Shown here: in pieces, positions 5,395-63,027 of the stretch | Layout of the letters: every line of letters begins with the position of its first letter | Numbering within the stretch: the first letter of the stretch is position 1 | Source: Ylistrum balloti | Lineage: Eukaryota | DNA: 64,000 bases | Direction of reading: 5' to 3' | Assembly: GCF_031769215.1 (NCBI RefSeq) | Contig: NW_026782006.1 | Location: 844,070 to 908,069, forward strand | The notes under the pieces: model-generated | Told to the model about the DNA's origin: nothing | Seen by the model: only the letters and a program-made list of their open reading frames with translations | The model's database searches: none | Position numbers and translations under genes: made by a program

Positions 5395-8276
5395 TTTCTA
5401 TAAAAACATTCAGTCACTTGTGTTCAGTCATATATCCAACAACAAATGCCAGAGGAAATGGGGACCTGTTGTCGTATATTTATTAGTTCTCATGTTCTGA
5501 ATGGTATTGATGTAAGCAGCGATTTGAAACCGTCTCCTTTATGTGCCATTGACAGCGACAATTCACTATTCGACCAGTCGACGAAACCGTGTATTCTTCT
5601 GGCAAATTGATGGGACGCATTTTCCATCTAATTTGTTTCATATTCCTCCACTCAAAAAACTGTTGTCTAGACTCTGTCTTTAAAGGAAACAGACGTTTTT
5701 AGAAAACTCACAGAAATGCAGTTTTCAAAGACTGCTTGTGCAGAAGATAAAATCTTGAATACTTTTATATTTCCATATTATCAATTTCATCATGATATCT
5801 GTTAGATCTTTGTCCCTTTTCTCTTCTCAAAATCACTGTCAGAACAATTATGCACAACCAGGGAGTAAGACATTTTTTTATAAATACTAAAAGTGACAAC
5901 AATAAGAAAAATAGGGAAAATGACACAATAATTTTTTAAAACAGACTTAACCTTTATAATCCAAATATCTGCTGGTGTCGAACATAGATAATCCATCAAG
6001 TTCACAATGTACACAGAATCGATTCTGTAGAGGTTTGTTATGTTTCTGTATTGTGAAGCTCTTTTCAGTAGTTCACCGACGTAAATGTAAGATAAGAGTA
6101 CCAGCAAATTTAAAAGTGGACAGTGGATGCCATCTGGAAACAATGAAGTTAAAATTTGGCAGGCACACCTATAATCAAGTCTGTCGTCATCCCTGTATTT
6201 TATCAGGGAGATATCTTAGAAATTCCTAGAAATGAAATAACGGTAACCTCTTTAGAGCCATTATTCAAAATGGCTACAATTGTCAGTGTAGCTGGAAATG
6301 TACCATACTCATTTAAAACACATACAGAACAGGTTCATGATCTTTAAATCAGATCCTTTCATGGTTCTCCAGAGATGAACAGAGTAAGAAAAAATACTCT
6401 GGACAGACTAAGACATATACTCACAATTACAATATACTTTGGTCAAATGAAATAAACTGAATTCGAGTGCTTGTTACCTGATTGACAATATCAATCGGCC
6501 TGATTAAGTCCTTCAATTATTTTTCTCAAATTTCAATTTATAGATCTTGTCATTATGTATATTTCCATGTGATATAAGAAGTATTTTTTTCGATGATTGT
6601 GATCTTTAACCTGTTTACCATATAGAGAGCATGGTATTGCCTTGATTGACTGAACACATAGTAACTGTTAATTTAAGAATCATCCAAAATTTTAAGCTAC
6701 GAGAGCCTTCCATGAATTGGCCTAAATATTTGAACCCGTTAGGTTCATCATTCAGAATTAACATCTTGAAATGTAAGAACTTTTTTTATTATATTTCGTG
6801 TGTACAAAAGAACTAGGATTTCTTGATTATGAGGGATTGCCTATCTATACGTTATGCAATCTTTCCTAAGAAGAAATACTGTCTAACGTGCGACAATATT
6901 GCAATAATTTAAATTGCCTTTTAATGATAAGGATACGGACCTCCACTGTTAATATTTCTCGGGAATCCGTGTAAACCCAGATTTGATAGTACATTTTGTA
7001 TTTAGAATGGCAGTTCTCAGTTTTGACAAAGGCTCGGTTTAACAGCTAAACGAGCCCACAATAAAACGTTACATGGTTCCTGTGAAGCTTTTTGACAATC
7101 TTCAGCACAACTCTAAGCATTTCTTTAATAAGAACATTTGATATCTCCACTGTACATTACCATACCCCATTCCAAACAGAAAGAATACCTTCAGCTCTTG
7201 TTACGATAGCTTTCCAAGAAAGGTGGACGGTGGTACAAATATATGGTTGTGAACTATACTATTTTTCGTGAAATCAAAGAAGAAGTAAGAAGGCGAAATC
7301 TGGTTGACAACATCAGTTGAGTTTGAAGGCAAGACCGTATAACAGACTTTTGGCAAACCTTTGAAAACTAACTGTTCCCCTCTGTTGGTTGACTTATTTT
7401 TTATTTCATACGAGGCTGAATTTATCGAGGAACTTATCAAAACAGGCAACAAATACTTTGCAAAGTCGATCAGTTTCACTTTCAGAGATATCAAAGACAT
7501 CTTGTCTTTGAATCAGAAATTTATTGACCACGTCCATCGTATCAACCCACCAGAATTGGAAATCGAGGACACAACAGACTCTTCTACAATAGCTTTCTTA
7601 TCTCGATCTTTACCTACAATGAACCAACATGGACAGTTTGACATCAAACTGTATGATAAGCGTAATGATTTCAATTTCCCTCGAGTAAAATTTCCATTTC
7701 TGGATAGAAACATTCCTGCATCTAAACTATGGTGTACACATGTCGCAGTTGATTCGGCATGTTCCCATTATCAAGACGTTCGAGCAAGACGTTTTTACTG
7801 GCGGACAAACTCTCAACACATTGTTTCAAAAGATGCAGATTGATGGAAATAATGGGAAAGTTTTACGGTCGTCATAGTGATGTCAATGACAAATATTCTA
7901 TTTCCTTGTATGATATGAAGCTGGACGTGTTTGGATTGACCAAGATTTACATGGCGTGTGTCATCGATAAAGCAAAAGACCTTTACTCTTGCGGAACACC
8001 CTGTCTTATTTTCTTGTACTTTTTCAGAATCTCCGAGTATATCTTTCTTTTGTTCATAGCTTGCCCTAGTTTCATTGAATTTAAGATTGGTTTATGGTTA
8101 TGTTGACATGTTAGTCTTGATTCTTGAAGCAAACGACATCATTCGGGAGCACAAAGCATTCATTTTCCTAAATTTTATCCAACAAAAATCTATCTTTTAA
8201 AGTTCAAGTTGCTGAGCTATATAAACAACTAAAAACGAGACTCAATGAAGCATCCTTTGTTTTAATATAGAAACGA

Positions 8277-24262: not shown

Positions 24263-25040
24263 CTTAACGAGGTTTTAGTTGAAGAGAGCAATCCCTGTCG
24301 AAATTTTAGTTGATGATAGATCGCTTACAGGGTTTCAGTTGAAGAGAGAGCTCTCTACCAAAGGTTCAATTGAATGAAGGGAGATTCCTGACAAAGGATC
24401 AATTGAAGAGAGATTTCTAACGTAGTTTTAGTTGAAGAGAGATTCCTGATAAAGGATTAATTGAAGAAAGATTCCTGACAAAGGATTAATTGAATGAAGA
24501 GAGATTTATAACAAAGGTTTAATTGAAGAGATTTCTAACGTAGTTTTAGTTGAAGAGAGATTCCTGACAAAGGATTAACTGAATGAAGAGAGATTTCTAA
24601 CAAAGGTTTAATTGAAGAGATTTCTAACGTAGTTTTAGTTGAAGAGAGATTCCTGACAAAGGATTAACTGAATGAAGAGAGATTTCTAACAAAGGTTTAA
24701 TTGAAGAGATTTCTAACGTAGTTTTAGTTGAAGAGAGATTCCTGACAAAGGATTAACTGAATGAAGAGATATTTCTAACAAAGGTTTAATTGAAGAGATT
24801 TCTAACGTAGTTTTAGTTGAAGAGAGATTCCTGACAAAGGATTAATTGAATGAAGAGAGATTTCTAACAAAGGTTTAATTGAAGAGAGATTTCTAACGTA
24901 GTTTTAGTTGAAGAGAGATTCCTGACAAAGGATTAATTGAATGAAGAGAGATTCCCGACAAAGGATTAATTGAATGAAGAGAGATTCCTAACAAAGGATT
25001 AATTGAAGAGAGATTTCTATGGTAGTTTTTAGTTGAAGAG
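24262..25040. repeat. Satellite H: compound ~89-bp unit (TTTAGTTGAAGAGAGATTCCTGACAAAGGATTAACTGAATGAAGAGAGATTTCTAACAAAGGTTTAATTGAAGAGATTTCTAACGTAG), ~8 copies, with internal ~45-bp sub-repeat
   Basis: Direct reading. Period measured 24541 -> 24630. Confidence 0.85.
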
Positions 25041-25264
25041 AATGATCAACAAGACCTTAAAAATGGTTTCAGCTGTAACATGTAAACAGCATAGGTGGCT
25101 GGAGAGATGTACCTGTTGCTTTTGTTGTAAGAAACACTTGGGGTTAGCGGGTGATGTAGAAAAGTATGTCTTGTCCTTGATTTCCGATTCTGGTGGGTTT
25201 ATTCGATAGACATGGTCAATAAATGTCTTACTACTCAATGAGACATCATCAAGATGATTGGGGG

Positions 25265-28200
25265 ATCTAACATAGGTAACTATATACCAATAGTCGGTTG
25301 AAGATCTAACATAGGTAATTATATACCAATAGTGTGTTGGTAGATCTAACATAGGTAACTATATACCAATAGTGTGTTGGTAGATCTAACATAGGTAACT
25401 ATATACCAATAGTCTGTTGAAGATCTAACATAGGTAACTATATATCAATAGTGTGTTGAAGATCTTACATAGGTAACTATACACCAATAGTGTGTTGGTA
25501 GATCTAACATAGGTAACTATATACCAATAGTGTGTTGGTAGATCTAACATAGGTAACTATATACCAATAGTGTGTTGGTAGATCTAACATAGGTAACTAT
25601 ATACAAATAGTGTGTTGGTAGATCTAACATAGGTAACTATATACCAATAGTGTGTTGGTAGATCTAACATAGGTAACTATATACCAATAGTGTGTTGAAG
25701 ATCTAACATAGGTAACTATATACCAATAGTGTGTTGGTAGATCTAACATAGGTAACTATATACCAATAGTGTGTTGAAGATCTAACATAGGTAACTATAT
25801 ACCAATAGTGTGTTGAAGATCTAACATAGGTAACTATATACCAATAGTCTGTTGGTAGATCTAACATAGGTAAATATATACCAGTAGTCTGTTGGTAGAT
25901 CTAACATAGGTAACTATATACCAATAGTGTGTTGGTAGATCTAACATAGGTAACTATATACCAATAGTCTGTTGGTAGATCTAACATAGGTAAATATATA
26001 CCAGTAGTCTGTTGGTAGATCTAACATAGGTAACTATATACCAATAGTGTGTTGGTAGATCAAACATAGGTAACTATACACCAATAGTGTGTTGGAAGAT
26101 CTAACATAGGTAACTATATACCAATAGTGTGTTGGTAGATCTAACATAGGTAACTATATACCAATAGTGTGTTGGTAGATCTAACATAGGTAACTATATA
26201 CCAATAGTGTGTTGGTAGATCTAACATAGGTAACTATATACCAATAGTGTGTTGGTAGATCTAACATAGGTAACTATATACCAATAGTGTGTTGAAGATC
26301 TAACATAGGTAACTATATACCAATAGTGTGTTGGTAGATCTAACATAGGTAACTATATACCAATAGTGTGTTGAAGATCTAACATAGGTAACTATATACC
26401 AATAGTGTGTTGAAGATCTAACATAGGTAACTATATGTTGGTAGATCTAACATAGGTAACTATATACCAATAGTGTGTTGGAAGATCTAACATAGGTAAC
26501 TATATACCAATAGTGTGTTGGTTAGATCTAACATAGGTAACTATATACCAATAGTGTGTTGGTAGATCTAACATAGGTAACTATATACCAATAGTGTGTT
26601 GAAGATCTAACATAGGTAACTATATACCAATAGTGTGTTGTGTTGGAAGATCTAACATAGGTAACTATATACCAATAGTGTGTTGTGTTGGTAGATTTAA
26701 CATAGGTAACTATATACCAAAAGTGTGTTGTGTTGGTAGATCTAACATAGGTAACTATATACCAATAGTGTGTTGAAGATCTAACATAGGTAACTATACA
26801 CCAATAGTGTGTTGGAAGATCTAACATAGGTAACTATATACCAATAGTGTGTTGAAGATCTAACATAGGTAACTATATACCAATAGTGTGTTGAAGATCT
26901 AACATAGGTAACTATATACCAATAGTGTGTTGGTAGATCTAACATAGGTAACTATATACAAATAGTGTGTTGGTAGATCTAACATAGATAACTATATACC
27001 AATAGTGTGTTCGTAGATCTAACATAGGTAACTATATACCAATAGTGTGTTGAAGATCTAACATAGGTAACTATATACCAATAGTGTGTTGGTAGATCTA
27101 ACATAGGTAACTATATACCAATAGTGTGTTGAAGATCTAACATAGGTAACTATACACCAATAGTGTGTTGAAGATCTAACATAGGTAACTATATACCAAT
27201 AGTGTGTTGGAAGATCAATAGTCTGTTGAAGATCTAACATAGGTAACTATATACCAATAGTGTGTTGTAGATCTAACATAGATCTAACATAGGTAACTAT
27301 ATACCAATAGTGTGTTGGTAGATCTAACATAGGTAACTATATACCAATAGTTGTGTTGGAAGATCTAACATAGGTAACTATATACCAATAGTGTGTAACT
27401 ATATACCAATAGTGTGTTGGTAGATCTAACATAGGTAACTATATACCAATAGTGTGTTGGAAGATCTAACATAGGTAACTATATACCAATAGTGTGTTGG
27501 TAGATCTAACATAGGTAACTATATACCAATAGTGTGTTGGTAGATCTAACATAGGTAACTATATACCAATAGTGTGTTGGTAGATCAAACATAGGTAACT
27601 ATACACCAATAGTGTGTTGGAAGATCTAACATAGGTAACTATATACCAATAGTGCGTTGGAAGATCTAACATAGGTAACTATATACCAATAGTGTGTTGG
27701 TAGATCTAACATAGGTAACTATATACCAATAGTGTGTTGGTAGATCTAACATAGGTAACTATATACCAATAGTGTGTTGGTACTAACATATACCAATAGT
27801 GTGTTGAAGATCTAACATAGGTAACTATATACCAATAGTGTGTTGGTAGATCTAACATAGGTAACTATATACCAATAGTGTGTTGGTAGATCTAACATAC
27901 GTAACTATATACCAATAGTGTGTTGAAGATCTAACATAGGTAACTATATACCAATAGTGTGTTGGTAGATCTAACATACGTAACTATATACCAATAGTGT
28001 GTTGAAGATCTAACATAGGTAACTATATACCAATAGTGTGTTGGTAGATCTAACATAGGTAACTATATACCAATAGTGTGTTGGTAGATCTAACATAGGT
28101 AACTATATACCAATAGTGTGTTGAAGATCTAACATAGGTAACTATACACCAATAGTGTGTTGGTAGATCTAACATAGGTAACTATATACCAATAGTGTTT
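25265..28200. repeat. Satellite I: 40-bp unit (AGATCTAACATAGGTAACTATATACCAATAGTGTGTTGGT), ~73 copies
   Basis: Period 40 (25321 -> 25361). Contains AGATCT palindrome per unit. Confidence 0.97.
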
Positions 28201-30650: not shown

Positions 30651-31479
30651 ATCATAATGTTTAACTACATTTTAAACCTTAAAAGCAAAAAGCAAAAATC
30701 TCTCAATTTCATGAAATTATAAGCTTACATCAGTTACTTTTGTAAAGTTAAAACCTTAAAACATTGGGAAAATTGATATAATAAAAAATAACAAAACATC
30801 ACTACAAAGAATAACAATAGGCCCAAGGGGCCTTAACGGTCACCAGAGGAATATATGTCAATAATCTGGGGATTTTAAAATGTTGCAAAAATGTAACAAC
30901 ACTTGTGCAGGACCGTGTGTAAAACATCTGTACCAAGTCTGAACATGATCCACCCAGTGGTTCTTGAGAGGAAGTCCAAAATGTCTTAGCCAAACAGAGG
31001 CAAGGGTTGCACATTTATATAAAGCAAATCATGTTTTCATTTACAAGTTGAAATATATCTTAGTAGATACATGTATAGCTAAAGTATACAAAAAATCAGA
31101 TCAATTTCAAGTCTATCCACAATCTTTTCCTTGCCTAATACAATAAGGCATCCAACTAAAAAAACTCCCATAAAACAATGTGAAAAAATCTTGTGGTACT
31201 TCTGAGACAGGAATATATATGTATAAAGGCTGAGAAATGTAGTGTTACCACAGTTATTGAACCATATTATACATGTAGCTCATTTTTTTCTCGCCTATAT
31301 GGTTGTCATAAACACACAACACGTCTTTATTAAAGATTAATATGTAACAACTATCAGAAGGGCTAATTTTGGACCAGTTATTTTTATTCTCACAAACTTT
31401 GCCGTTCTTTCCCTTAAGATCATCTATATGAAGTTACACTTTTGGTTCAAGACAACAAGATTTGCTAAGATTTAACAAA

Positions 31480-32200: not shown

Positions 32201-32570
32201 AAATAATGTACAAAAATTAGATCTTAAAAATAATATCACTGGCATGACATTTTGATGAACTCTTTGTAAATGACATTGGTAATTTTTGCCAATGTTTTGA
32301 TCAAGTTCATTATATTATGAAAATAAAAATTTGATATCCTTATGAAGAACAATAGATATCACAAATGCATTGGTAAAATCTGTGATTTCAGATATTGGCT
32401 AGATAGATCAAAGCTCAAGGTTGCAGTTGTCCAGAATATAAATACTGAATTCCAAGGTACTGTAAATGGGGATCTTTGTGGACTCAATGACAATCTGACA
32501 TCTACCAACAACAAAACAACAGACAAAAGGCAGCTGTTTTTTCTATCGATAATAAAACAGTATTTGATAA

Positions 32571-32866
32571 TTAACAACCCAACATTTTCAGTGCTACTGC
32601 AAACCAGTTAGGTCCCAGTTCTAGGATTGAAGCGACTCTAGGGTGTGCTCTCTCAATCTGATCACAATATGAAATGGCCTTGTCTAGTAAAGACTGATCA
32701 TGGTCATAGATCTCCAGCACTCCTTTGGCTATGTTGACAACACTGTCTGACCATCCCCTTGTCTCAGTATTTAGGGGGAACAGCTCTGGCACCAGTGTCT
32801 TAAGCATCCACATGACGACAAAAGCTGCTACCAAAACGTTTTCTATTTCCATAGCAACTTTGTTTC
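32571..32866 (-). CDS. Gene C, last coding exon (G)NKVAMEIENVLVAAFVVMWMLKTLVPELFPLNTETRGWSDSVVNIAKGVLEIYDHDQSLLDKAISYCDQIERAHPRVASILELGPNWFAVALKMLGC*
   Basis: Minus acceptor ttttacAG (32867-32868). Phase-1 entry matches previous exon. Open to TAA at 32571-32573. No convincing internal donor, so treated as terminal. Product not recognised. Confidence 0.55.
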
Positions 32867-33177
32867 CTGTAAAATGAATATTTTACACAATGAAACAATA
32901 AGCTATTCGTTGATTTAGCTAATTGAATTCTGATCCAAAAACTTAATCCTCAATCTTATTCACAATGTTTTATTTATGACATGAGCCTTAAACTAGAACC
33001 TACTACATGTCTTTGTTATAAAAGAAACTAATTGTTTGCATTATTTCTCTCTATCCTATCCAAAGAATCTGTCTTAAACCAACAAGGAACAGAACACCAA
33101 AAAACAATATCATAAAAAAATTATTTGTTTGTGTAATCACATTTTGTTAAATTCCAAACATTGATTGAGTAAATCAC

Positions 33178-33274
33178 CTAATGACTTGAGTCCCGCAGTG
33201 TTCAGAGTCTCCATACAGGCCGTCAAATCAATGAAGAGCTCTTTCTCCACCTGGCTTCTGGTCCAACCTCCAAG
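33178..33274 (-). CDS. Gene C exon: LGGWTRSQVEKELFIDLTACMETLNTAGLKSL
   Basis: Minus acceptor tatatcAG (33275-33276). Donor AG|GTGATT at 33177. 97 nt, phase 0 in, phase 1 out, consistent with neighbours. Confidence 0.6.
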
Positions 33275-33769
33275 CTGATATACAAACAAGTTGTTTTTAT
33301 CTGTGTTACAATACTTCACTGGCTGTATCTTCTATAATATTAGTGGTATTTCAGCCACATCTCAGGTTTTTGGACATGGAGAAGATAAATGTTTCCTACG
33401 TGTGGAGTAACACTTCACATACCTGTAGTATGCTGCTAGGCTACAGAAAACTTCTCTAGGACAATTGAGCCTAGTAAACCAGAGGCCCAATGTGATGCAT
33501 TGAAATCAATAATGACATCTGTTACATACATAAATGGCATCGAATTATTCTGGAAATATCATCACTTGCAATAAAATTGTCTCATTACCACAATAGTATA
33601 CCTAGATCTCAATCAGATATTCTTTTTATCACACAATGTGCCCAATTCATTTTTGTGATTCTTCACACAACAATGATCAGTATCCAATGAAACTTACCAG
33701 CATCTACCAACTACAACAATGTCAAGTGCTTGTACACTATTTCTATATTTACTAGCTATAAATTTCTTC

Positions 33770-34875
33770 AGCTTCTAATAACTACAAACTACGTCAGCTT
33801 CTAATAACTACAAACTACGTCAGCTTCTAATAACAACAAACTACGTCAACTACAAACTACGTCAGCTTCTAATAACAACAAACTACGTCAACTACAAACT
33901 ACGTCAGCTTCTAATAACAACAAACTACGTCAACTACAAACTACGTCAGCTTCTTATAACAACAAACTACTTCAGCTTCTAATAACAACAAACTACGTCA
34001 ACTACAAACTACGTCAGCTTCTAATAACTACAAACTACTCAACCTCTATCAGGTACAGAGTACTTCAATTTCTTCAAACTACAAACCATTCCAGCCTTTT
34101 CAGGCTAGAATCTACTCCAACCTCTTCCAACTACAAACTACTCCAACCTCCTCCAACTACAAACTACTCAAACCTCTTCCAACTACAAACTACTCAAACC
34201 TCCCCAACTACAAACTACTCAAACCTTCCCAACTACAATCTAGTCAAACCACTTCCAACTACAAACTACTCAAACCACTTCCAACTACAAACTAGTCAAA
34301 CCACTTCCAACTACAAACTACTCAAACCACTTCCAACTACAAACTAGTCAAACCACTTCCAACTACAAACTACTCAAACCTTCCCAACTACAAACTACTC
34401 AAACCTTCCCAACTACAAACTACTCAAACCACTTCCAACTACAAACTACTCCAACCTCCCCAACTACAAACTACTCCAACCTCTTCCAACTACAAACTAC
34501 TCAAACCTCCCCAACTACAAACTACTCCAACCTCCCCAACTACAAACTACTCCAACCTCCCCAACTACAAACTACTCCAACCTCCCCAACTACAAACTAG
34601 TCAAACCACTTCCAACTACAAACTACTCAAACCTTCCCAACTACAAACTAGTCAAACCTCTTCCAACTACAAACTGGTCAAACCACTTCCAACTACAAAC
34701 TACTCAAACCACTTCCAACTACAAACTACTCAAACCACTTCCAACTACAAACTAGTCAAACCACTTCCAACTACAAACTACTCAAACCTTCCCAACTACA
34801 AACTAGTCAAACCTTCCCAACTACAAACTAGTCAAACCTCCCCAGTTCTTCAACCTCTTCCACCTGCCAACTACT
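33770..34875. repeat. Satellite K: compound 26-bp unit (CTACAAACTACTCAAACCACTTCCAA; 5' part ACTACGTCAGCTTCTAATAACAACAA), ~40 copies, + strand almost devoid of G
   Basis: Direct reading. Period 26 (34276 -> 34302). Confidence 0.9.
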
Positions 34876-35572
34876 TTTCAGTATTCACTAGCTAAATAGA
34901 GAATACATGGTCAGTGTCTTAAAATATCAGCTGTGTTTCAGCGAGGATGAAGTAATACAAGAGTAGCAAGCCTCTGGCGAGCAACTTTTGTCTTTCAGTC
35001 TTGAGCCAAAATGTGGATTATATTTAAAGACAATGATCATGTATTCTATTTATCCTGAAACACTGAATGAAAATCAGACAATCTAAACTTAAGAAGTTTT
35101 GTTGTTCTATCTTTGTTTATCTGTCCTTGATGTTACGCTGAATTTTGTCTGATGGCGTACACCAAAATAATTGCTCTACATAGAAATGTTGTTCAAAACT
35201 TTTATGAATTTTTGTAAATAAACGTATTCATAACAACATGTTAAATAGCTTATTTCAACACTTATTTATATCATCAAATGTAATTTTAAAATAAATTCAT
35301 AAAGTAATTCTATTGAATTATGGTATGTGCTAAAATAAAGCTGTTTTCCGTCACTGCCGAATGCAACACAAATATAAGTGGCAGGTGTATTCTGACAAAA
35401 GGAGTGCCAGTTGTAGGCTAAATACCATTACAGCATCTAATCATATTCATATCAACAAATTGCATTTATATGGCATGGATATACAAGGGTGTAAAAAAAA
35501 TACTCCATAATCGTTCCTGTATGTGTCATAGTTGTCTGGACACCAGGTGTGTTCTGAGGGGCATGTACTTAC

Positions 35573-35664
35573 TCTATTTTGAAGTGCTTTAAGAGTGTCA
35601 AGGTCTTTTTTACTCAGGTTTTTCAATGCTGCCTTAGCAACTGTTGGCATTATTGTCCCAACAT
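35573..35664 (-). CDS. Gene C exon: (D)VGTIMPTVAKAALKNLSKKDLDTLKALQNR
   Basis: Minus acceptor tatttcAG (35665-35666). Perfect donor GTAAGT (35572-35567). 92 nt, phase 1 in, phase 0 out. Confidence 0.7.
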
Positions 35665-35804
35665 CTGAAATATCTATGAAAAAGAACAAACAACATTTTT
35701 ATTGGCATCATTCTTACAAAATCACATCTGATTGGTCATAGATCAATGTTACAGGGCCAAAGGTCACACATCACAACTTTCGAAATGAATATTTGTGTCA
35801 TAAT

Positions 35805-37415
35805 TCCACCCTGTAACATGTCAGTTTCCAATCCTTGTCAAACTCACCCTGTAACATGTCAGTTTCCAATCCTTGTCAAACTCGACCTGTAACATGTCAG
35901 TTTCCAATCCTTGTCAAACTCACCCTGTAACATGTCAGTTTCCAATCCTTGTCAAACTCGACCTGTAACTTGTCAGTGTCCAATCCTTGTCAAACTCGAC
36001 CTGTAACTTGTCAGTGTCCAATCCTTGTCAAACTCACCCTGTAACATGTCAGTTTCCAATCCTTGTCAAACTCACCCTGTAATTGGTCAGTTTCAAACCC
36101 TGATCAAACTCAACCTGTAATAGGTCAGTTTCAAACCCTGATCAAACTCACCCTGTAATTGGTCAGTTTCAAACCCTAATCAAACTCACCCTGTAATATA
36201 TCAGTTTCAAACCCTGATCAAACTCACCCTGTAATAGGTCAGTTTCAAACCCTGATCAAACTCACCCTGTAATAGGTCAGTTTCAAACCCTGATCAAACT
36301 CACCCTCTCATATGTCAGTTTCCAATCCTTGTCAAACTCACCCTGTAACATGTCAGTTTCCAATCCTTGTCAAACACCCTGTAACATGTCAGTTTCCAAT
36401 CCTTGTCAAACTCACCCTGTAACATGTCAGTGTCCAATCCTTGTCAAACACCCTGTAACATGTCAGTGTCCAATCCTTGTCAAACACCCTGTAACATGTC
36501 AGTGTCCAATCCTTGTCAAACTCACCCTGTAACATGTCAGTTTCAAACCCTGATCAAACTCACCCTGTAATAGGTCATTTTCAAACCCTGATCAAACTCA
36601 CCCTGTAATATGTCAGTTTCCAATCTTTGTCAAACTCACCCTGTAATGTGTCAGTTTCCAATCCTTGTCAAACTCACATTGTAATTGGTCAGTTTCAAAC
36701 CCTTATCAAACTCACCCTGTAATATGTCAGTTTCACACCCTGATCAAACTCACCCTGTAATATGTCAGTTTCCAATCCTTGTCAAACCCACCCTGTAATA
36801 TGTCAGTTTCACACCCTGATCAAACTCACCCTGTAATAGGTCATTTTCAAACCCTGATCAAACTCACCCTGTAATTGGTCATTTTCAAACCCTGATCAAA
36901 CTCACCCTGTAATTGGTCATTTTCAAACCCTGATCAAACTCACCCTGTAATTGGTCATTTTCAAACCCTGATCAAACTCACCCTGTAATTGGTCATTTTC
37001 AAACCCTGATCAAACTCACCCTGTAATAGGTCATTTTCAAACCCTGATCAAACTCACCCTGTAATATGTCAGTTTCCAATCTTTGTCAAACTCACCCTGT
37101 AATGTGTCAGTTTCCAATCCTTGTCAAACTCACATTGTAATTGGTCAGTTTCAAACCCTTATCAAACTCACCCTGTAATATGTCAGTTTCACACCCTGAT
37201 CAAACTCACCCTGTAATATGTCAGTTTCACACCCTGATCAAACTCACCCTGTAATATGTCAGTTTCAAACCCTGATCAAACTCACCCTGTGATATGTCAG
37301 TTTCCAATCCTTGTCAAACCCACCCTGTAATATGTCAGTTTCACACCCTGATCAAATTCACCCTGTTATATGTCAGTTTCACAACCTGATCAAACTCACC
37401 CTGTAATATGTCAGT
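35805..37415. repeat. Satellite L: 38-bp unit, two interleaved subfamilies (TCAGTTTCCAATCCTTGTCAAACTCACCCTGTAACATG / TCAGTTTCAAACCCTGATCAAACTCACCCTGTAATAGG), ~42 copies
   Basis: Period 38 (35821 -> 35859). Every unit carries GTGAGT on the minus strand. Confidence 0.95.
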
Positions 37416-37522
37416 CTCAATGCCTGCTCGTCTTCGAAGTTTCTGAAACCTATCATCATCTACATGAAGACCTCTACTACGCTCCGCGGACCCATACCCA
37501 TAAGTCTGTTTTGAACCAGCAT
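37400..37522 (-). CDS. Gene C exon: (D)AGSKQTYGYGSAERSRGLHVDDDRFQKLRRRAGIETDILQ(G)
   Basis: Minus acceptor tttttccttAG (37523-37524). Donor GTGAGT is the first satellite-L unit (37399-37394). 123 nt, phase 1/1. Joins in frame to 40681-40759 and 35573-35664. Confidence 0.65.
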
Positions 37523-37599
37523 CTAAGGAAAAACAAAACAACAGAAATACTCAAAAGGTTGTTTACCCAATCATAATTAGTGAATGTCACAGATAAAAA

Positions 37600-38400
37600 A
37601 AAAGACATATCCTCACTGCCAACTTGTGACAATGTCATCCATGCCAATGATTTCTGTATTTTACAACTCGGCACCAATTGTTAGGGCCAATTATCTAACT
37701 CCACTTCAGACTCCAGATATAAATAACCTAATGATAATAATAATGGGCCAATCTCTGTTTTACCCATTTTATCTAAGATACTGGAAAGGCATGTACATAC
37801 CCATTTTATCTAAGATACTGGAAAGGCATGTACATACCCATTTTATCTAAGATACTGGAAAGGCATGTACAAACACAAGCTCATTGTCTCATCAAAGGCT
37901 TATACATTCCTATCTTCCCATTCAAGGTAGAATGAAGTTTTACAACTCATGTATTTTTCCCCATTTTATTTATTGCTGTACTGTATGGTCTGGATGTGAT
38001 GCAAATCATATGGGTAAATTATATAAAGCCCAGAAACAGGCAGAAAGAGTTATACTTAATGTGCCATATGATACACCTTCCTCTGATATGTCTTCTGTTT
38101 TAAAATGGATTCCAACTGAAAAATATTTTAAATTCAAGAGAATATGTTTGTTTTACAAATGTATTCATGGATTGGTGCCAGATTACTTAAGCCACAATAT
38201 CAAACTTGCTAATGATGAACACAGAAGATGTATCAGGTTCTCCGTGGCAAATAATGTTATTGTTCCTAAGCACAGAACTACATTTTACTCAAAACAATTT
38301 TTTATATCTGGTGCTCAGGACTGGAATAGTCTATCCAGTCTGTTAAAAGACATTCAAAATTTTAATTCTTTTAGAGACCAACTAGTTCATTACTTTTGAA
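37600..38400 (+). mobile_element. Non-LTR (LINE) retrotransposon remnant: N-proximal RT fragment (..PILSKILERHV..) fused to the conserved ORF2 C-terminal domain; 5'-truncated and internally deleted
   Basis: 171-aa ORF 37884-38399 shows the widespread LINE ORF2 C-terminal pattern (FPHFIYCCTVWSGC........L..AQKQAERVI.......S..M...LKWIP.EKYFKFKRICLFYKCIHGLVPDYL......A.....R.........PK.RT.FYSKQFFISGAQDWNSL). Upstream ..NYLTPL..PILSKILERHV matches the RT 'NYRPISLL...SKIlEk' region. (ATT)n microsatellite follows at 38745-38790. Confidence 0.7.
37740..37870. repeat. 37-bp tandem triplication (CCCATTTTATCTAAGATACTGGAAAGGCATGTACATA) inside the LINE RT fragment
   Basis: Direct reading. Duplicates the PILSKILERHVH coding segment. 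Confidence 0.85.
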
Positions 38401-39130
38401 ATTCTTAACTGTTCTTTTTCATGCAAAATTTTCCTTCTTTAATCTATGCTATATTAGCGTATATCCTGGTAATTTTTACTTTTTGCTATGTTAGCATATA
38501 TGTATCTATGGCTTAAAGCCATTAATTGACAAATCAAATTAGCACAAATATGTGTTTGTGCTATCTGTGATAACCTTAATTAATATTTACTGTGATATGT
38601 TATAATGTCTTTCACTATGATATTTTGTATGTATTTTAGTATCTGATTGTGATATCATGTTTTACTAACGAAGTAATATTTAACTAACTTGAGGACCATG
38701 TGGTAGATTAGCCTTTGGATAAACATGTATTATCCTCTTTAAAAAAAGTCTATTATTATTATTATTATCATTATTATTAAAAAACAAAGTAAACAGCAGT
38801 TCATATAGCTGTAACCCCAACATCCTTGTTCAACAGTGTAATTACTATTTTAAACACCTTCTATAACCCTCACCACAACAACCGTATTCTTAGATTAATG
38901 TAAACTAAATATACTGATCAAGTGATCAAGTGTGACATTTGACCCTTCAACTCTGACTGAATACCATTAAATATGATGTAGATCTCAAGCGCTCTGATAT
39001 AATATTGAGAATAGTGTACTAATATGGGATACCTTAATGAACACTTGTTTATGCTACATTACATGGATGAATGATTATACACAGAATGTTGTGGTTATAC
39101 TTCCCGTCCATCAGGCAAACCCCAATGTGA

Positions 39131-40320
39131 CCGTGAGATATCTCATACACAAGGGACCATGAGATATCTCATACATAAGGGACCATGAGATATCTCATAC
39201 ACAAGGGACCATAAGTATCTCATACACAAGGGACCATGAAATATCTCATACACAAGGGACCATAAGTATCTCATACATAAGGGACCATGAGATATCTCAT
39301 ACACAAGGGACCATGAAATATCTCATACACAAGGGACCATAAGTATCTCATACATAGGGACCATGAGATATCTCATACACAGGGGACCATGAGATATCTC
39401 ATACACAATGGACCATGAGATATCTCATACACAAAGGATGGTGAGATGTCTCATACACAAGGGACCATGAGATATCTCATACACAAGGGACCATGAGATA
39501 TCTCATACACAATGGACCATGAGATATCTCATACACAAAGGATGGTGAGATGTCTCATACATAAGGGACCATGTAATATCTCATACACAAGGGACCATGA
39601 GATATCTCATACACAGGGGACCATGAGATATCTCATACACAAGGGACTGTGAGACATCTCATACACAAGGGACCATGAGATATCTCATACACAGGGGACC
39701 ATGAGATATCTCATACACAAGGGACTGTGAGACATCTCATACACAAGGGACCATGAGATTTCTCATACACAGGGGACCATGAGATATCTCATACACAAGG
39801 GACTGTGAGATGTCTCATACACAAGGGACCATGAGATATCTCATACACAAGGGACCATGAGATATCTCATACACAATGGACCATGAGATATCTCATACAC
39901 AAAGGATGGTGAGATGTCTCATACATAAGGGACCATGTAATATCTCATACACAAGGGACCATGAGATATCTCATACACAGGGGACCATGAGATATCTCAT
40001 ACACAAGGGACTGTGAGACATCTCATACACAAGGGACCATGAGATATCTCATACACAGGGGACCATGAGATATCTCATACACAAGGGACTGTGAGACATC
40101 TCATACACAAGGGACCATGAGATTTCTCATACACAGGGGACCATGAGATATCTCATACACAAGGGACTGTGAGACATCTCATACACAAGGGACCGTGAGA
40201 TATCTCATACACAAGGGACCGTGAGATATCTCATACACAAGGGACTGTGAGATATCTCATACACAGGGGACCATGAGATATCTCATACACAAGGGACCGT
40301 GAGATATCTCAGATAAGGGA
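39131..40320. repeat. Satellite N: 26-bp unit (TCTCATACACAAGGGACCATGAGATA), ~46 copies
   Basis: Period 26 (39181 -> 39207). Confidence 0.95.
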
Positions 40321-40680
40321 CCATTCAGGTGCCGAATTAAAATGTTCCACCATATCCGAGAGATAGAACTGTGTTAGTTTACAGTGTGTGTGACATTTTG
40401 ACTCTGTGAAAATTTGACAATTAATATGTTGAACCGTAATTTACAATTTAGCTCTCCTTTTCTCGATGTAAAATTGTTCTGAAGATGGTAGACCTAACCA
40501 ACCGAAGCATGTCAAGGAATACTATAAAGTTAGGGAATCCCTGGTGTTAATGCTCCATCCTTTATCTACTTGTCCTTGGTATGAAGTTTCAATACATCAG
40601 ATTGTCTGGAAAATCAGTCTACGATTAAATCTTTATCAAACATATTTACTTTAACATGATTACATTGATGTAAAACTTAC

Positions 40681-40759
40681 CTTCCATACAAAAAGTACGG
40701 ACATCTGTTAAATCAGGTCTTTCTCTAGCCACAGCCGTCCTAAGTCTGCGTGGTAAATC
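40681..40759 (-). CDS. Gene C exon (most 5' one seen): DLPRRLRTAVARERPDLTDVRTFCME
   Basis: Minus acceptor ccatgaAG (40760-40761). Perfect donor GTAAGT (40680-40675). Only one of three frames is open. 79 nt, phase 0 in, phase 1 out. Confidence 0.6.
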
Positions 40760-41164
40760 CTTCATGGAAACAAAACACATAATGGATTGAGAATCACCTT
40801 CAGTATATGTATAATATGGTTATTATGATTTCTATGTTGTAATTACAGTCAGATTTCCATTATTTGTTATTATAGAAAACACTGTTAAATATTTTATTTA
40901 TCGCTTGTTTTGTGTGATGTTCTATCAGGCTTTTAAATTGGCCAATCTTACAAAATAGAATGGGTACCCTGTTCCAATTTGATGAAATTTTTTGTGTGTT
41001 ATTTTCATTGCAATGAAAATATGTTTTAATGATTTGAAATTTCTCCACATGTCATGGGAGTGATCTTCATTAATAACAATTATAACATTATTCTATATTC
41101 AAAAGCCAAACTCGCAATGAATAAATTCATCTCAAGTCTGTACAGCTATTACATCTCTTAACAT

Positions 41165-44100
41165 GTATATCTAGTTAACATGATGTCCTCCAGTCGATAT
41201 ATCTCTGTATCTAGTTCATCTGATGTCTGTCTAGAGCTGATATATCTCTATATCTAGGTAAAATGATGTCTGTCTACAGCTGATATATCTGTATCTAGTT
41301 CATCTGATGTCTGTCTACAGCCGATATAGCTCTGTATCTAGTTCATCTGATGTCTGTCTACAGCTGATATATCTATATATCTAGGTAAAATGATGTCTGT
41401 CTACAGCTGATATATCTGTATCTTGTTCATCTGGTGTCTGTCTACAGCCGATATATCTCTGTATCTAGTTCATCTGATGTCTGTTTACAGCTGACATATC
41501 TCTATATCTAGTTCATCTGATGTCTGTCTACAGCTGATATATCTCTGTATCTAGTTCATCTGATGTCTGTCTACAGCTGACATATCTCTATATCTAATTC
41601 ATCTGATGTCTGTCTACAGCCGATATATCTCTGTATCTAGTTCATCTGATGTCTGTTTACAGCTGATATATCTCTGTATCTAGTTCATCTGATGTCTGTC
41701 TATAGCCGATATATCTGTGTATCTAGTTCATCTGATGTCTGTCTACAGCCGATATATCTCTGTATCTAGTTCATCTGATGTTTGTCTAGAGCTGATATCT
41801 CTGTATCTAGTTCATCTGATGTCTGTCTACAGCTGATATATCTCTGTATCTAGTTCATCTGATGTCTGTCTACAGCCGATATATCTCTGTATCTAGTTCA
41901 TCTGATGTCTGTCTACAGCCGATATATCTCTGTATCTAGTTCATCTGATGTCTGTCTATAGCAGATATATCTCTGTATCTAGTTCATCTGATGTCTGTCT
42001 ATAGCCGATATATCTGTGTATCTAGTTCATCTGATGTCTGTCTATAGCCGATATAGCTCTGTATCTAGTTCATCTGATGTCTGTCTATAGCAGATATAGC
42101 TCTGTATCTAGTTCATCTGATGTCTGTCTATAGCAGATATATCTCTGTATCTAGTTCATCTGATGTCTGTCTATAGCAGATATATCTCTGTATCTAGTTC
42201 ATCTGATGTCTGTCTACAGCCGATATATCTCTGTATCTAGTTCATCTGATGTCTGTCTACAGCCGATATATCTCTGTATCTAGTTCATCTGATGTCTGTC
42301 TACAGCCGATATATCTCTGTATCTAGTTCATCTGATGTCTGTCTATAGCAGATATATCTCTGTATCTAGTTCATCTGATGTCTGTCTATAGCCGATATAT
42401 CTGTGTATCTAGTTCATCTGATGTCTGTCTACAGCTGATATATCTCTGTATCTAGTTCATCTGATGTCTGTCTACAGCTGATATATCTCTGTATCTAGTT
42501 CATCTGATGTCTGTTTACAGCTGACATATCTCTATATCTAGTTCATCTGATGTCTGTCTAGAGCTGATATATCTCTGTATCTAGTTCATCTGATGTCTGT
42601 TTACAGCTGACATATCTCTATATCTAGTTCATCTGATGTCTGTCTAGAGCTGATATATCTCTGTATCTAGTTCATCTGATGTCTGTCTACAGCTGATATA
42701 TCTCTATATCTAGTTCATCTGATGTCTGTCTACAGCCGATATAGCTCTGTATCTAGTTCATCTAATGTCTGTCTACAGCCGATATATCTCTGTATCTAGT
42801 TCATCTGATGTCTGTTTACAGCTGATATATCTCTGTATCTAGTTCATCTGATGTCTGTCTACAGCTGATATATCTCTGTATCTAGTTCATCTCATGTCTG
42901 TCTACAGCTGATATATCTCTGTATCTAGTTCATCTGATGTCTGTCTACAGCTGATATATCTGTATCTAGTTCATCTGATGTCTGTCTACAGCCGATATAT
43001 CTCTGTATCTAGTTCATCTGATGTCTGTCTAGAGCTGATATATCTTCTGTATCTAGTTCATCTGATGTCTGTCTACAGCCGATATATCTCTGTATCTAGT
43101 TCATCTGATGTCTGTCTACAGCCGATATATCTCTGTATCTAGTTCATCTGATGTCTGTCTAGAGCTGATATATCTTCTGTATCTAGTTCATCTGATGTCT
43201 GTCTACAGCTGATATATCTCTGTATCTAGTTCATCTGATGTCTGTTTACAGCTGATATATCTCTGTATCTAGTTCATCTGATGTCTGTCTAGAGCTGATA
43301 TATCTCTGTATCTAGTTCATTTGATGTCTGTCTACAGCTGATATATCTCTGTATCTAGTTCATCTGATGTCTGTCTACAGCTGATATATCTCTGTATCTA
43401 GTTCATCTGATGTCTGTCTAGAGCTGATATAGCTCTGTATCTAGTTCATCTGATGTCTGTCTACAGCCGATATATCTCTGTATCTAGTTCATCTGATGTC
43501 TGTCTACAGCCGATATATCTCTGTATCTAGTTCATCTGATGTCTGTCTACAGCTGATATATCTCTGTATCTAGTTCATCTGATGTCTGTCTACAGCCGAT
43601 ATATCTCTGTATCTAGTTCATCTGATGTCTGTCTACAGCCGATATATCTCTGTATCTAGTTCATCTGATGTCTGTCTACAGCTGATATATCTCTGTATCT
43701 AGTTCATCTGATGTCTGTCTAGAGCTGATATATCTCTGTATCTAGTTCATTTGATGTCTGTCTACAGCTGATATATCTCTGTATCTAGTTCATCTGATGT
43801 CTGTCTACAGCTGATATATCTCTGTATCTAGTTCATCTGATGTCTGTCTACAGCTGATATATCTCTGTATCTAGTTCATCTGATGTCTGTCTAGAGCTGA
43901 TATATCTCTGTATCTAGTTCATCTGATGTCTGTTTACAGCTGATATATCTCTGTATCTAGTTCATCTGATGTCTGTCTAGAGCTGATATATCTCTGTATC
44001 TAGTTCATCTGATGTCTGTCTACAGCTGATATATCTCTGTATCTAGTTCATCTGATGTCTGTCTACAGCTGATATATCTCTGTATCTAGTTCATCTGATG

Positions 44101-45010: not shown

Positions 45011-45244
45011 TCTCAGGTGGATCTAGATTATCATATCAATAAAAGTGTTTTGATAAACAAGGTAAACATTCAACTGAGCATGTGATAGATAGGGTAACTA
45101 CTCACCACTGACTCATCTTTAAACACTGCAGACATTTTTTTCTTTCTGAATTTCTTGTTCTCATCCTGTATTAGTCAAATAAACCATAGTGATTATACCT
45201 TTACAATTACACCACAGGTAATGTATTTCTTTCTTTTAGTACAT

Positions 45245-49658: not shown

Positions 49659-50595
49659 CAATACACTTAGAGATATCAGGTCTTCTGTAGACTTTCCACC
49701 TCTATTGGCTGATGATAAAGGCCTTGCAGATTGCTGAGATTGGCCAAAACAATGCGATAATCCTTCAGTCACCGGAGAGGAGACTCTGTCCAATAAGCAT
49801 TCATCAGCTCCTGAGAATCTATTACATATGGAAGTCTGTCTTGAAGATCTCCCATGCTGTGGAGAAGGGGGAGGTGGTGCTGCGGGTGTAAAAGCCAACC
49901 TAGACTTTCGAGCACGTTGGGTACATTGTGTTGCAGGTGTAAAAGCCATGGCAGACTTTCGATGGGGGGGAGGTGGGGGAGGTGGTGTTGCGGATGTAAA
50001 AGCCACGGCAGACTTTGGAGGTGGGGGAATTGGTGTTGCAGGTGTAAAAGCCATGGCAGACTTTGGAGGTGGGGGAGGTGGGGGAGGTGGGGGAGGTGAT
50101 GTTGCGGATGTAAAAGCTACGGCAGACTTCGGAGGTGGGGGAGGTGGTGTTCCGGGTGTAAATGCCATGGCAGTCTTTGGAGGTGGGGGAGGTGGTGCTG
50201 CGGGTGTAAAAGCTAACGCAGACTTTGGAGGTGGGGGAATTGGTGTTGCAGGTGTAAAAGCCATGGCAGACTTTCGATGGGGGGGAATGGGTGGTCCGGA
50301 TGTAAAAGTCTTGGCAGATTTTGGAGGTGGGGGAATTGGTGTTGCAGGTGTAAAAGCCATGGCAGACTTTGGAGGTGGGGGAGGTGGTGTTGCGGATGTA
50401 AAAGCCACGGCAGACTTTGGAGGTGGGGGAGGTGGTGCTGCTGATGTAAAAGCCATGGCAGACTTCGGAGGTGGGGGAGGTGGTGCTGTGGGTGTAAAAG
50501 CCATGGCAGACTTTTGACGGGGGGAAATTGGTGGTCCGGATGTAAAATCCTTGGCAGACTTTGGAGGTGGGGAAATTGGTGTTGCAGATAAATAC
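49659..50595 (-). CDS. Candidate large exon of a proline-rich protein: ~12 x 60-bp coding repeats ([K/R]SA[M/V]AFT[P/S]A[T/A]PPPPPP) followed by unique tail ..SPQHGRSSRQTSICNRFSGADECLLDRVSSPVTEGLSHCFGQSQQSARPLSSANRGGKSTEDLISLSVL
   Basis: One continuous open frame of 937 nt on minus strand. Bounded by acceptor ctattgcAG (50596-50597) and donor GTATGT (49658-49653). GC-rich relative to flanks. Repeat varies at synonymous/conservative positions. Confidence 0.5.
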
Positions 50596-60239: not shown

Positions 60240-62485
60240 TTATACATTGATGTGAACTTACCCTGCTATACAGTGTTCCTGCTGATACATTGATGTGATT
60301 CCTGCTGATACATCCTGGTTATATCTGTGAATTACCCTGCTATACAGTGTTCCTGCTGATACATTGATGTGAACTTACCCTGCTATACAGTGTTCCTGCT
60401 GATACATGGATGTGAACTTACCCTGCTATACAGTGTTCCTGCTGATACATTGATGTGAACTTACCCTGCTATACAGTGTTCCTGCTGATACATTGATGTG
60501 AACTTACCCTGCTATACAGTGTTCCTGCTGATACATTGATGTGAACTTACCCTGCTATACAGTGTTCCTGCTGATACATTGATGTGAACTTACCCTGCTA
60601 TACAGTGTTCCTGCTGATACATTGATGTGAACTTACCCTGCTATACAGTGTTCCTGCTGATACATGGATGTGAACTTACCCTGCTATACAGTGTTCCTGC
60701 TGATACATGGATGTGAACTTACCCTGCTATACAGTGTTCCTGCTGATACATGGATGTGAACTTACCCTGCTATACAGTGTTCCTGCTGATACATTGATGT
60801 GAACTTACCCTGCTATACAGTGTTCCTGCTGATACATTGATGTGAACTTACCCTGCTATACAGTGTTCCTGCTGATACATGGATGTGAACTTACCCTGCT
60901 ATACAGTGTTCCTGCTGATACATGGATGTGAACTTACCCTGCTATACAGTGTTCCTGCTGATACATTGATGTGAACTTACCCTGCTATACAGTGTTCCTG
61001 CTGATACTGATGTGAACTTACCCTGCTATACAGTGTTCCTGCTGATACATTGATGTGAACTTACCCTGCTATACAGTGTTCCTGCTGATACATTGATGTG
61101 AACTTACCCTGCTATACAGTGTTCCTGCTGATACATGGATGTGAACTTACCCTGCTATACAGTGTTCCTGCTGATACATGGATGTGAACTTACCCTGCTA
61201 TACAGTGTTCCTGCTGATACATGGATGTGAACTTACCCTGCTATACAGTGTTCCTGCTGATACATGGATGTGACTTACCCTGCTATACAGTGTTCCTGCT
61301 GATACATGGATGTGAACTTACCCTGCTATACAGTGTTCCTGCTGATACATGGATGTGAACTTACCCTGCTATACAGTGTTCCTGCTGATACATGGATGTG
61401 AACTTACCCTGCTATACAGTGTTCCTGCTGATACATGGATGTGAACTTACCCTGCTATACAGTGTTCCTGCTGATACATGGATGTGAACTTACCCTGCTA
61501 TACAGTGTTCCTGCTGATACATTGATGTGAACTTACCCTGCTATACAGTGTTCCTGCTGATACATTGATGTGAACTTACCCTGCTATACAGTGTTCCTGC
61601 TGATACATTGATGTGAACTTACCCTGCTATACAGTGTTCCTGCTGATACATTGATGTGAACTTACCCTGCTATACAGTGTTCCTGCTGATACATTGATGT
61701 GAACTTACCCTGCTATACAGTGTTCCTGCTGATACATGGATGTGAACTTACCCTGCTATACAGTGTTCCTGCTGATACATTGATGTGAACTTACCCTGCT
61801 ATACAGTGTTCCTGCTGATACATGGATGTGAACTTACCCTGCTATACAGTGTTCCTGCTGATACATTGATGTGAACTTACCCTGCTATACAGTGTTCCTG
61901 CTGATACATGGATGTGAACTTACCCTGCTATACAGTGTTCCTGCTGATACATTGATGTGAACTTACCCTGCTATACAGTGTTCCTGCTGATACATTGATG
62001 TGAACTTACCCTGCTATACAGTGTTCCTGCTGATACATGGATGTGAACTTACCCTGCTATACAGTGTTCCTGCTGATACATGGATGTGAACTTACCCTGC
62101 TATACAGTGTTCCTGCTGATACATTGATGTGAACTTACCCTGCTATACAGTGTTCCTGCTGATACATTGATGTGAACTTACCCTGCTATACAGTGTTCCT
62201 GCTGATACATGGATGTGAACTTACCCTGCTATACAGTGTTCCTGCTGATACATGGATGTGAACTTACCCTGCTATACAGTGTTCCTGCTGATACATGGAT
62301 GTGAACTTACCCTGCTATACAGTGTTCCTGCTGATACATGGATGTGAACTTACCCTGCTATACAGTGTTCCTGCTGATACATGGATGTGAACTTACCCTG
62401 CTATACAGTGTTCCTGCTGATACATTGATGTGAACTTACCCTGCTATACAGTGTTCCTGCTGATACATGGATGTGAACTTACCAT
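60240..62485. repeat. Satellite U: 43-bp unit (CCTGCTATACAGTGTTCCTGCTGATACATTGATGTGAACTTAC; ATTGATG/ATGGATG variants), ~52 copies
   Basis: Period 43 (60371 -> 60414). Confidence 0.97.
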
Positions 62486-62944
62486 TTTAGACATTGTTTT
62501 CTTTGCTATGACATCCTCATTTCTGAATCAAAATAAAGCTCAGCATTAAACATGATAAATTATCCTGTTTGACCACTCATTTAAACTCTTGTGTTTGTTG
62601 TATATAGCACATAATCTGGTTCATTTTCTTTCAGCAATACAAGGGTTAAGCATAACTTTGACCTTTGAATTAAAATGACTTTGATATAGTCATACAACCA
62701 TGTGACTCCAGAATCAAGTATCTACTTTCACAGACTTAGTTTGACATTTGACCTCAATAAAACCTTTGGGAGGAACTTTTGATCTCAGTGTTACATGCCT
62801 ATACTGTTCAGTAGACAACACAGGCTATTATATTGTTCTGTATTATGCTCATCCTTCAAACTAGAATAACTAAAACCAATAAATACACAATACGCATTAC
62901 TTGTAACTTCAGTATGAATGTATTTTAACATTAAGTACCCATAC

Positions 62945-63027
62945 CTTTGCTGATATTTAATTGTACTGTCAAAGTACGTGTCTTGATCCGATTCCGACTC
63001 CGAAGTCTTCCCTGAGTTCATTAAAAC
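62945..63027 (-). CDS. Candidate small exon: VLMNSGKTSESESDQDTYFDSTIKYQQ(R)
   Basis: Minus acceptor tgtgttacAG (63028-63029). Donor AG|GTATGG at 62944. Only one of three frames open. Confidence 0.35.

Follow-up and report, generated by a model that had tools for sequence, protein, structure and literature searches.

The last five exons of the uncharacterized scallop gene LOC132545763 very probably encode the C-terminal part of a PARP4-family protein, with its MINT domain

In human PARP4 (vault PARP), residues 1562-1724 form the MINT or MVP-interacting domain (MVP-ID; PDB entries 9bw6, 9bw7 and 11jf; Pfam family PF26156), which anchors PARP4 to repeat domains 3-5 in major vault protein (MVP), on the inner wall of the vault (PMC12280208). 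Double mutation of S1614 and K1618 to alanine abolishes MVP binding, and two further residues, Q1682 and R1689, make additional contacts with MVP (PMC12280208). The name MVPID is also in use for this MVP-interacting region of the human protein (PMC10450202). Here we analysed five exons on the minus strand of a 64,000-nucleotide stretch of the genome of the scallop Ylistrum balloti (contig NW_026782006.1, positions 844,070 to 908,069), called the window below and in which all positions are counted. An earlier note on this DNA had described them as a five-exon "Gene C" of unrecognised product. They are indeed real coding exons, but the mapping of a RefSeq protein makes them the last five of a larger gene, and the product can be recognised: the last three exons encode the MINT / MVP-ID domain of PARP4, and the closest orthologue is annotated PARP4-like. 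With high confidence, we assign the five exons, as genuine ones, to the 3' end of the coding sequence of LOC132545763, which belongs to the PARP4 family, and exons 3-5 to an all-helical MINT / MVP-ID domain of about 160 residues.

Reading the minus strand of 32400-41300, we found the five exons at the places first proposed, with GT-AG borders and, as first placed, lengths of 79, 123, 92, 97 and 296 nt. All the acceptors are an AG after a pyrimidine-rich stretch, and the donors of exons 1-4 are GTAAGT, GTGAGT, GTAAGT and GTGATT. The phases are as the earlier note had listed them (0/1, 1/1, 1/0, 0/1 and 1/stop) and, when joined, the exons give a single open frame of 687 nt that ends with a TAA at 32571-32573. 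The product is 228 residues long and not about 170, and the translation given at first contained a spurious G (ILQGDVG instead of ILQDVG). In the chosen frame, openness reaches just 18-57 nt upstream of each acceptor, and in exons 1-4 the open frame runs 32-123 nt past the donor. The exons, in the order of transcription, are the following.

40681-40759, minus strand: exon 1, coding, linker; 79 nt, phase 0 to 1; encodes DLPRRLRTAVARERPDLTDVRTFCME(D); acceptor ...ccatgaag, donor gtaagt.
37400-37522, minus strand: exon 2, coding, linker; 123 nt, phase 1 to 1.
35573-35673, minus strand: exon 3, first exon of the MINT domain; 101 nt with the most likely acceptor, that of RefSeq and of Argopecten.
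33178-33274, minus strand: exon 4, second exon of the MINT domain; 97 nt; LGGWTRSQ...AGLKSLG; carries S602 (human S1614).
32571-32866, minus strand: exon 5, terminal, third exon of the MINT domain; 293 nt of coding sequence plus TAA; carries K606 (human K1618) and the invariant LELG..W motif.

The five exons correspond to residues 471-701 of XP_060065435.1 (701 amino acids, "uncharacterized protein LOC132545763", Ylistrum balloti), with 100% identity apart from a difference of 9 nt at one acceptor; exon 1 (40681-40759) matches residues 471-496 exactly. The difference concerns exon 3, whose acceptor had been set at 35664. An upstream AG is found at 35673/35674, and both acceptors are in frame. 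Since the RefSeq model uses 35673, and since the start of the exon in Argopecten irradians (G|AT CTT GCC GAT GTC, DLADV, in DLADVG) parallels the one obtained here (G|AT ATT TCA GAT GTT, DISDV, in DISDVG), the start of exon 3 most likely lies 9 nt upstream of 35664, at 35673, and the exon gains I-S-D; alternative use of both acceptors may occur. At the other end, an in-frame ATG at 40763-40765 was considered as a start codon and rejected, because exon 1 is spliced at the AG acceptor at 40760 and the RefSeq protein has 470 residues ahead of it. On the 3' side of the stop codon, the first canonical AATAAA signals lie about 1.2 kb away (31331-31388, minus strand); the 3' untranslated region is either long or served by a non-canonical polyadenylation signal.

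A homology search with the joined translation, which the earlier note had proposed, was productive. An exhaustive phmmer search over 1.84 billion representatives gave 16 matches, PARP4 homologues among them, with XP_060065435.1 as the best; a word-indexed homologue search with the 230-residue product gave no match. Because XP_060065435.1 is derived from the same genome, it does not count as independent evidence. The best non-self match is the "PARP4-like" protein of Argopecten irradians (XP_069141930 and its isoforms), 73% identical over 165 residues (E=1e-70). The matches share a C-terminal domain of about 160 residues, with the motifs Q..DG.WEF, GL.SLG, ATLLVL, PELFP, HP.VYS.LELG.SW and LG, and a profile built from their alignment (A1) matches human PARP4 1572-1706 (9bw6, 9bw7, 11jf) with E=1.1e-19. 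To avoid circularity, the profile was rebuilt without the two scallop sequences (A3). Against the PDB, A3 found the same human segment in the same three entries with E=1.9e-21, and no other match at E<=0.01. Against the window protein it scored 114.9 bits (E=2e-37, for one target) over residues 69-227, that is, over exactly exons 3-5. The domain thus sits at the extreme C-terminus and ends one residue before the stop codon. Two of the homologues (P0003 and P0024) carry a precomputed assignment to PF26156, PARP4_MVP-ID.

The predicted fold agrees with this assignment. With the alignment as input, AlphaFold gave a confident, all-helical model, with a predicted local distance difference test (pLDDT) score of 83.7 and a predicted template modelling score (pTM) of 0.82; the model obtained from the single sequence was uninformative (pLDDT 36). 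In the predicted model, a compact all-alpha fold of about 150 residues superposes on the MINT chain of the cryo-electron microscopy structure of vault-bound PARP4. Another of the nearest known systems, the C-terminal helical domain of VIT-vWA / VWA5A-like proteins, is exemplified by a flagellar VWFA domain-containing protein of T. brucei (PDB 9e5c, chain 4t). It differs by its identity of 13% and by giving no signal at the sequence level; its context is the axonemal doublet, whereas that of the human PARP4 domain is the vault.

The comparison with Argopecten also bears on the coding nature of the exons. The intron positions and phases of exons 3-5 are identical in the two scallops (Argopecten locus L001), and the terminal exon, 32571-32866, is 75% identical to its counterpart over 97 residues. 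Exons 3-5 align without gaps over 164 codons, and the differences fall at codon positions 1, 2 and 3 in the numbers 35, 23 and 81. The proportions of nonsynonymous and synonymous sites that differ (pN and pS) are 0.173 and 0.658, and the ratio of the corresponding substitution rates (dN/dS) is 0.125. That the consistency of the phases goes beyond chance is seen in the same alignment, where each of the other two frames contains 14 stops. Since dN/dS is this low, third positions are in excess, the other frames are closed and the introns are shared, exons 3-5 can be regarded, from the alignment, as coding sequence under purifying selection.

Exons 1 and 2 behave differently. They are supported by their splice signals, by the continuity of the frame and by the RefSeq model. 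Compared with Argopecten, they show no significant conservation at the protein level: exon 2 has a weak colinear match (QTYGYGSAERSRGLHVD in Ylistrum, RTATYENTRNGRALHVD in Argopecten), and a relaxed tblastn search of the window with the Argopecten linker gave only matches at the level of noise. These two exons probably encode a fast-evolving linker, which is probably disordered.

Full-length PARP4 homologues with the same C-terminal domain are known from two other molluscs: Potamilus streckersoni KAK3593675 (2363 residues; P0010), which matches the window protein with E=4.6e-7, and Liolophura XP_064611003 (2150 residues; P0016, annotated PARP4-like), with E=4.1e-5. Both have a long low-complexity region rich in Pro/FG ahead of this domain. 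They differ from the Ylistrum locus in that BRCT, PARP_reg, PARP, VIT and VWA stand in one polypeptide with it, whereas the window has no coding sequence for any of them.

Several observations weigh against the assignment or limit it. A phmmer search of the PDB with the window protein alone did not reach human PARP4, which was found with the profiles only. The window protein has no match in the Pfam copy used, a copy that lacks PF26156; that copy also misses the human MINT sequence and the homologue P0024, and because human MINT itself gives no match there, this negative is uninformative. The scallop sequences have LGGWT-R where the DG.WEF motif is otherwise conserved. Two of the human contact residues are replaced in the scallop protein, Q1682 by A and R1689 by I; these two positions also vary among bona fide full-length PARP4s of invertebrates. 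Binding of the scallop protein to MVP is something that we infer only, by analogy with the human domain. Finally, the RefSeq protein that matches perfectly was itself predicted computationally from this genome, and brings no independent evidence for exons 1-2.

Two residues that the human protein needs for MVP binding are present: the profile alignment pairs S1614 with S602 of the scallop protein and K1618 with K606, both within the motif GLKSLGNK. By analogy, the MINT domain of the scallop protein would dock it on the inner wall of the vault by binding MVP repeat domains 3-5, through electrostatic contacts that would include the conserved Ser and Lys of this motif. The proline-rich segment described below, with anything N-terminal to it, would then extend into the vault lumen, like the disordered part of human PARP4. 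MVP itself is reportedly treated in proteome studies of bivalves.

The search for further 5' exons, which the earlier note had recommended, succeeded. According to an exact mapping of XP_060065435.1 on the window, the five exons are the last five of a gene with at least 10 predicted coding exons, which would run through the window to 63027 and continue beyond 64000. For residues 1-91 of the protein, the window holds no coding sequence. The exons recovered upstream are these.

45106-45165, minus strand: upstream coding exon; DENKKFRKKKMSAVFKDESV; exact match to residues 451-470; acceptor aatacag, donor gtgagt; lies between two satellites.
49659-50595, minus strand: large proline-rich exon; 937 nt, 312 residues; exact match to residues 138/139-450.
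62483-62522, minus strand: upstream coding exon; NEDVIAKKTMSKM; a 43-bp satellite at 60326-62483 has this exon's donor as its first base.
62945-63027, minus strand: upstream coding exon; VLMNSGKTSESESDQDTYFDSTIKYQQ-.

In the large exon at 49659-50595, a 16-residue unit, PPPPPPKSAMAFT.A, recurs about 14 times, which makes the exon a coding minisatellite; Tandem Repeats Finder reports a period of 48 over 49969-50589. No Pfam domain was found in the 701-residue RefSeq model, which begins with a start codon of its own and in which an N-terminal segment is duplicated. Comparable polyproline and (S)AMAF(T/S) repeats stand ahead of MINT in the Argopecten and Pinctada homologues, and in Aplysia (annotated "POM121"), Liolophura and amphioxus the repeats in this place are FG-like.

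The Argopecten PARP4-like protein shares with that of Ylistrum an acidic region, a large proline-rich exon with AMAFT repeats, small linker exons and the three MINT exons. It differs in that its model also takes in part of a vWA domain, namely its C-terminal half, and the linker exons cannot be aligned. Its isoforms X1-X8 all start in the middle of vWA, and homology to PARP4 continues upstream of the annotated ATG (L001 9950-10000, plus strand); at L001 1699-1788 (plus strand), an exon for vWA adjoins a satellite. The Argopecten models appear to be 5'-truncated. In Branchiostoma lanceolatum (L003 1-14057, plus strand), a PARP-VIT-VWA model of 1363 residues and a MINT-only model of 281 residues lie 3.9 kb apart; they are probably one PARP4 gene split by annotation.

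Tandem repeats make up 61% of the window, and for the gene's span within it the figure is 74%; the repeats of the window fall into at least 15 satellite families with units of 26-156 bp. The introns between the five exons had been said to consist mostly of satellites. This is true of intron 2 (92%) and roughly of intron 1 (41%, plus a putative remnant of a long interspersed nuclear element, LINE), but intron 3 is about half satellite (47%) and the 0.3-kb intron 4 contains none (0%). The coding frame is unaffected by the repeat-rich introns that interrupt the gene, 40-93% of whose length is tandem repeat. In those between the five exons, the following elements were found.

39129-40311: 26-bp satellite, about 46 copies, in intron 1.
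37745-38400, plus strand: LINE-like remnant, antisense in intron 1; reverse transcriptase-like motif PISVLPILSKILERHV and an open reading frame (ORF) of 171 codons.
35807-37420: 38-bp satellite, about 43 copies, 92% of intron 2.
33768-34840: two adjoining satellites in intron 3, with units of 42/68 bp and 26/51 bp.

The 38-bp satellite begins inside exon 2, the last 19-21 or so coding nucleotides (..ACTGACATATTACAGG) and the donor GTGAGTTTGATCAGG forming its first unit, and a perfect AGG|GTGAGT 5' splice site is kept in 30 of the approximately 43 units. Because the residues at the end of the exon (E.D.L.D) are conserved in Argopecten, we suggest that the satellite grew out of the junction of exon 2 and intron 2 and not the reverse. 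A comparable arrangement is seen further upstream, at 60326-62522 (minus strand), where the 43-bp satellite has its start precisely at the donor of exon 62483-62522 (AAAATG|GTAAGTTCACATCC...). Forty-nine of its units hold CAGCAG|GAACACTGTATAGCAGG|GTAAGT, with an acceptor in front of the 17 nt and a donor behind them. One copy of GAACACTGTATAGCAGG, which could be any of the 49, serves in the RefSeq model as a 17-nt micro-exon (EHCIAG) that is needed for the frame into the proline-rich exon; this micro-exon is either real or a modelling device.

The introns of Argopecten are also packed with satellites (L001 1-64579), including a 7-kb array of a 38-bp unit, and the repeat families are unrelated to those of Ylistrum. 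Satellites seeded at donors were not seen there: the two arrays examined (47-bp and 38-bp units) start 47-100 nt from donors. The high satellite load of the introns seems to be a property of the locus or of the lineage and not of one assembly.

The segment at 37745-38400 we take, by recognition of its motif, to be a truncated non-LTR (non-long terminal repeat) retrotransposon whose ORF resembles the C-terminal tail of LINE ORF2. The DNA that encodes PISVLPILSKILERHV is partly triplicated (three copies of a 37-bp repeat at 37761-37871), and an (ATT)n-type microsatellite lies near 38750-38780, after the 171-codon ORF. Pfam searches with this ORF and with other ORFs of the window gave nothing usable, and Rfam had no match in 28000-64000. 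ORFs at 7361-8106 (plus strand) and 25029-25352 (minus strand) contain the motif FIDHVHRINPPELEIEDTTDS / FIDHVYRINPPESEIKDKT and have no Pfam match; a repeated coding fragment, probably derived from a transposon, seems to be present there in two diverged copies.

In such a repeat-rich setting, one has to ask whether the exons belong to a gene at all. With three quarters or so of the gene's span in the window made of tandem repeat, and with a RefSeq model that needs a micro-exon derived from a satellite and has a duplicated N-terminus, the exons could be a decaying fragment of a PARP4 pseudogene stranded in satellite DNA and the model an artefact. We consider this very improbable, since 228 codons are free of stops and frameshifts, all the splice sites are intact, the low dN/dS and the conserved introns speak for purifying selection over most of the time of divergence from Argopecten, and the Argopecten orthologue has introns equally rich in repeats. 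The consistency of the phases could also be a coincidence, chance ORFs in AT-rich DNA having been chained by a free choice of splice sites. With 26 and 41 codons, exons 1 and 2 are short, and they lack conservation across species; ORFs of such a size are not rare at 36% GC, and non-genic ORFs of at least 90 residues exist elsewhere in the window. For exons 3-5 this account is excluded by homology, dN/dS and the fold, and the borders of exons 1-2 were chosen independently by the RefSeq model; as an explanation of the five exons together it is hardly credible.

If the exons are those of a gene, its extent has to be decided. We lean, without much firmness, to the view that they are the tail of a full-length PARP4, whose exons for BRCT, PARP, VIT and vWA would lie beyond 64000 on the same strand, the 701-residue model being 5'-truncated or split. 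From its acidic region on, over the proline-rich exon and as far as MINT, the Ylistrum protein runs colinear with Argopecten PARP4-like, and the Argopecten model, which starts within vWA, has an unannotated exon for the N-terminal half of this domain 8 kb upstream (L001 1699-1788). The MINT-only model of B. lanceolatum, downstream of the PARP-VIT-VWA model on the same strand, looks like one half of a split gene, B. belcheri has a protein (P0014) that unites both parts, and Potamilus, a bivalve, has the complete architecture in one protein. On the other hand, tblastn searches with full-length PARP4s detected the MINT exons only, and none for PARP, VIT or vWA, over the 31 kb that the window holds upstream of the stop; the start codon and the duplicated N-terminal segment of the RefSeq model do not suit a truncation; and a word-index search with the Argopecten N-terminus, limited to 8000 candidates, gave no N-terminal half from Ylistrum. 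The gene could also be an independent derivative that lacks the catalytic domain and consists of the acidic region, the proline-rich AMAFT repeat and MINT, a non-enzymatic resident of the vault lumen or an adaptor. RefSeq gives a complete coding sequence of 701 residues without PARP, VIT and VWA; a 281-residue MINT model of Haliotis has no PARP4 exons in the 10 kb upstream; and in models of Aplysia (903 residues) and Pinctada (742 residues), MINT stands behind unrelated or low-complexity N-termini. All these short mollusc models are computational, however, the amphioxus case is probably a split annotation, and the closest orthologue, that of Argopecten, is joined to vWA, so that we regard such a derivative as possible but rather unlikely. 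Unlikelier still, in our view, is what might follow if the scallop gene were transcribed as annotated: molluscs would have free-standing MINT-tagged proteins (Pro-rich/AMAFT plus MINT) with MINT as a natural vault-targeting signal, and the satellites seeded at donors would have a function, in that one out of the 49 identical 17-nt pieces would act as a micro-exon that restores the frame, and copy number could tune splicing. Vault engineers achieve such targeting artificially, by means of the INT tag.

The gene itself was already annotated, and what is new is the naming of its product as a PARP4-family protein with a vault-docking domain. The main value of this result lies in annotation, in that an "uncharacterized protein" of Ylistrum balloti in RefSeq can now be given a name. 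A form free of the catalytic domain, if true, would point to natural non-enzymatic residents of the vault and would bear on the long-open question of vault cargo, although the present data do not favour it. As for the family, MINT has been characterised mainly in vertebrates, and the comparison of the two scallops indicates that it is under purifying selection in bivalves too, including the Ser/Lys pair that is needed for MVP binding.

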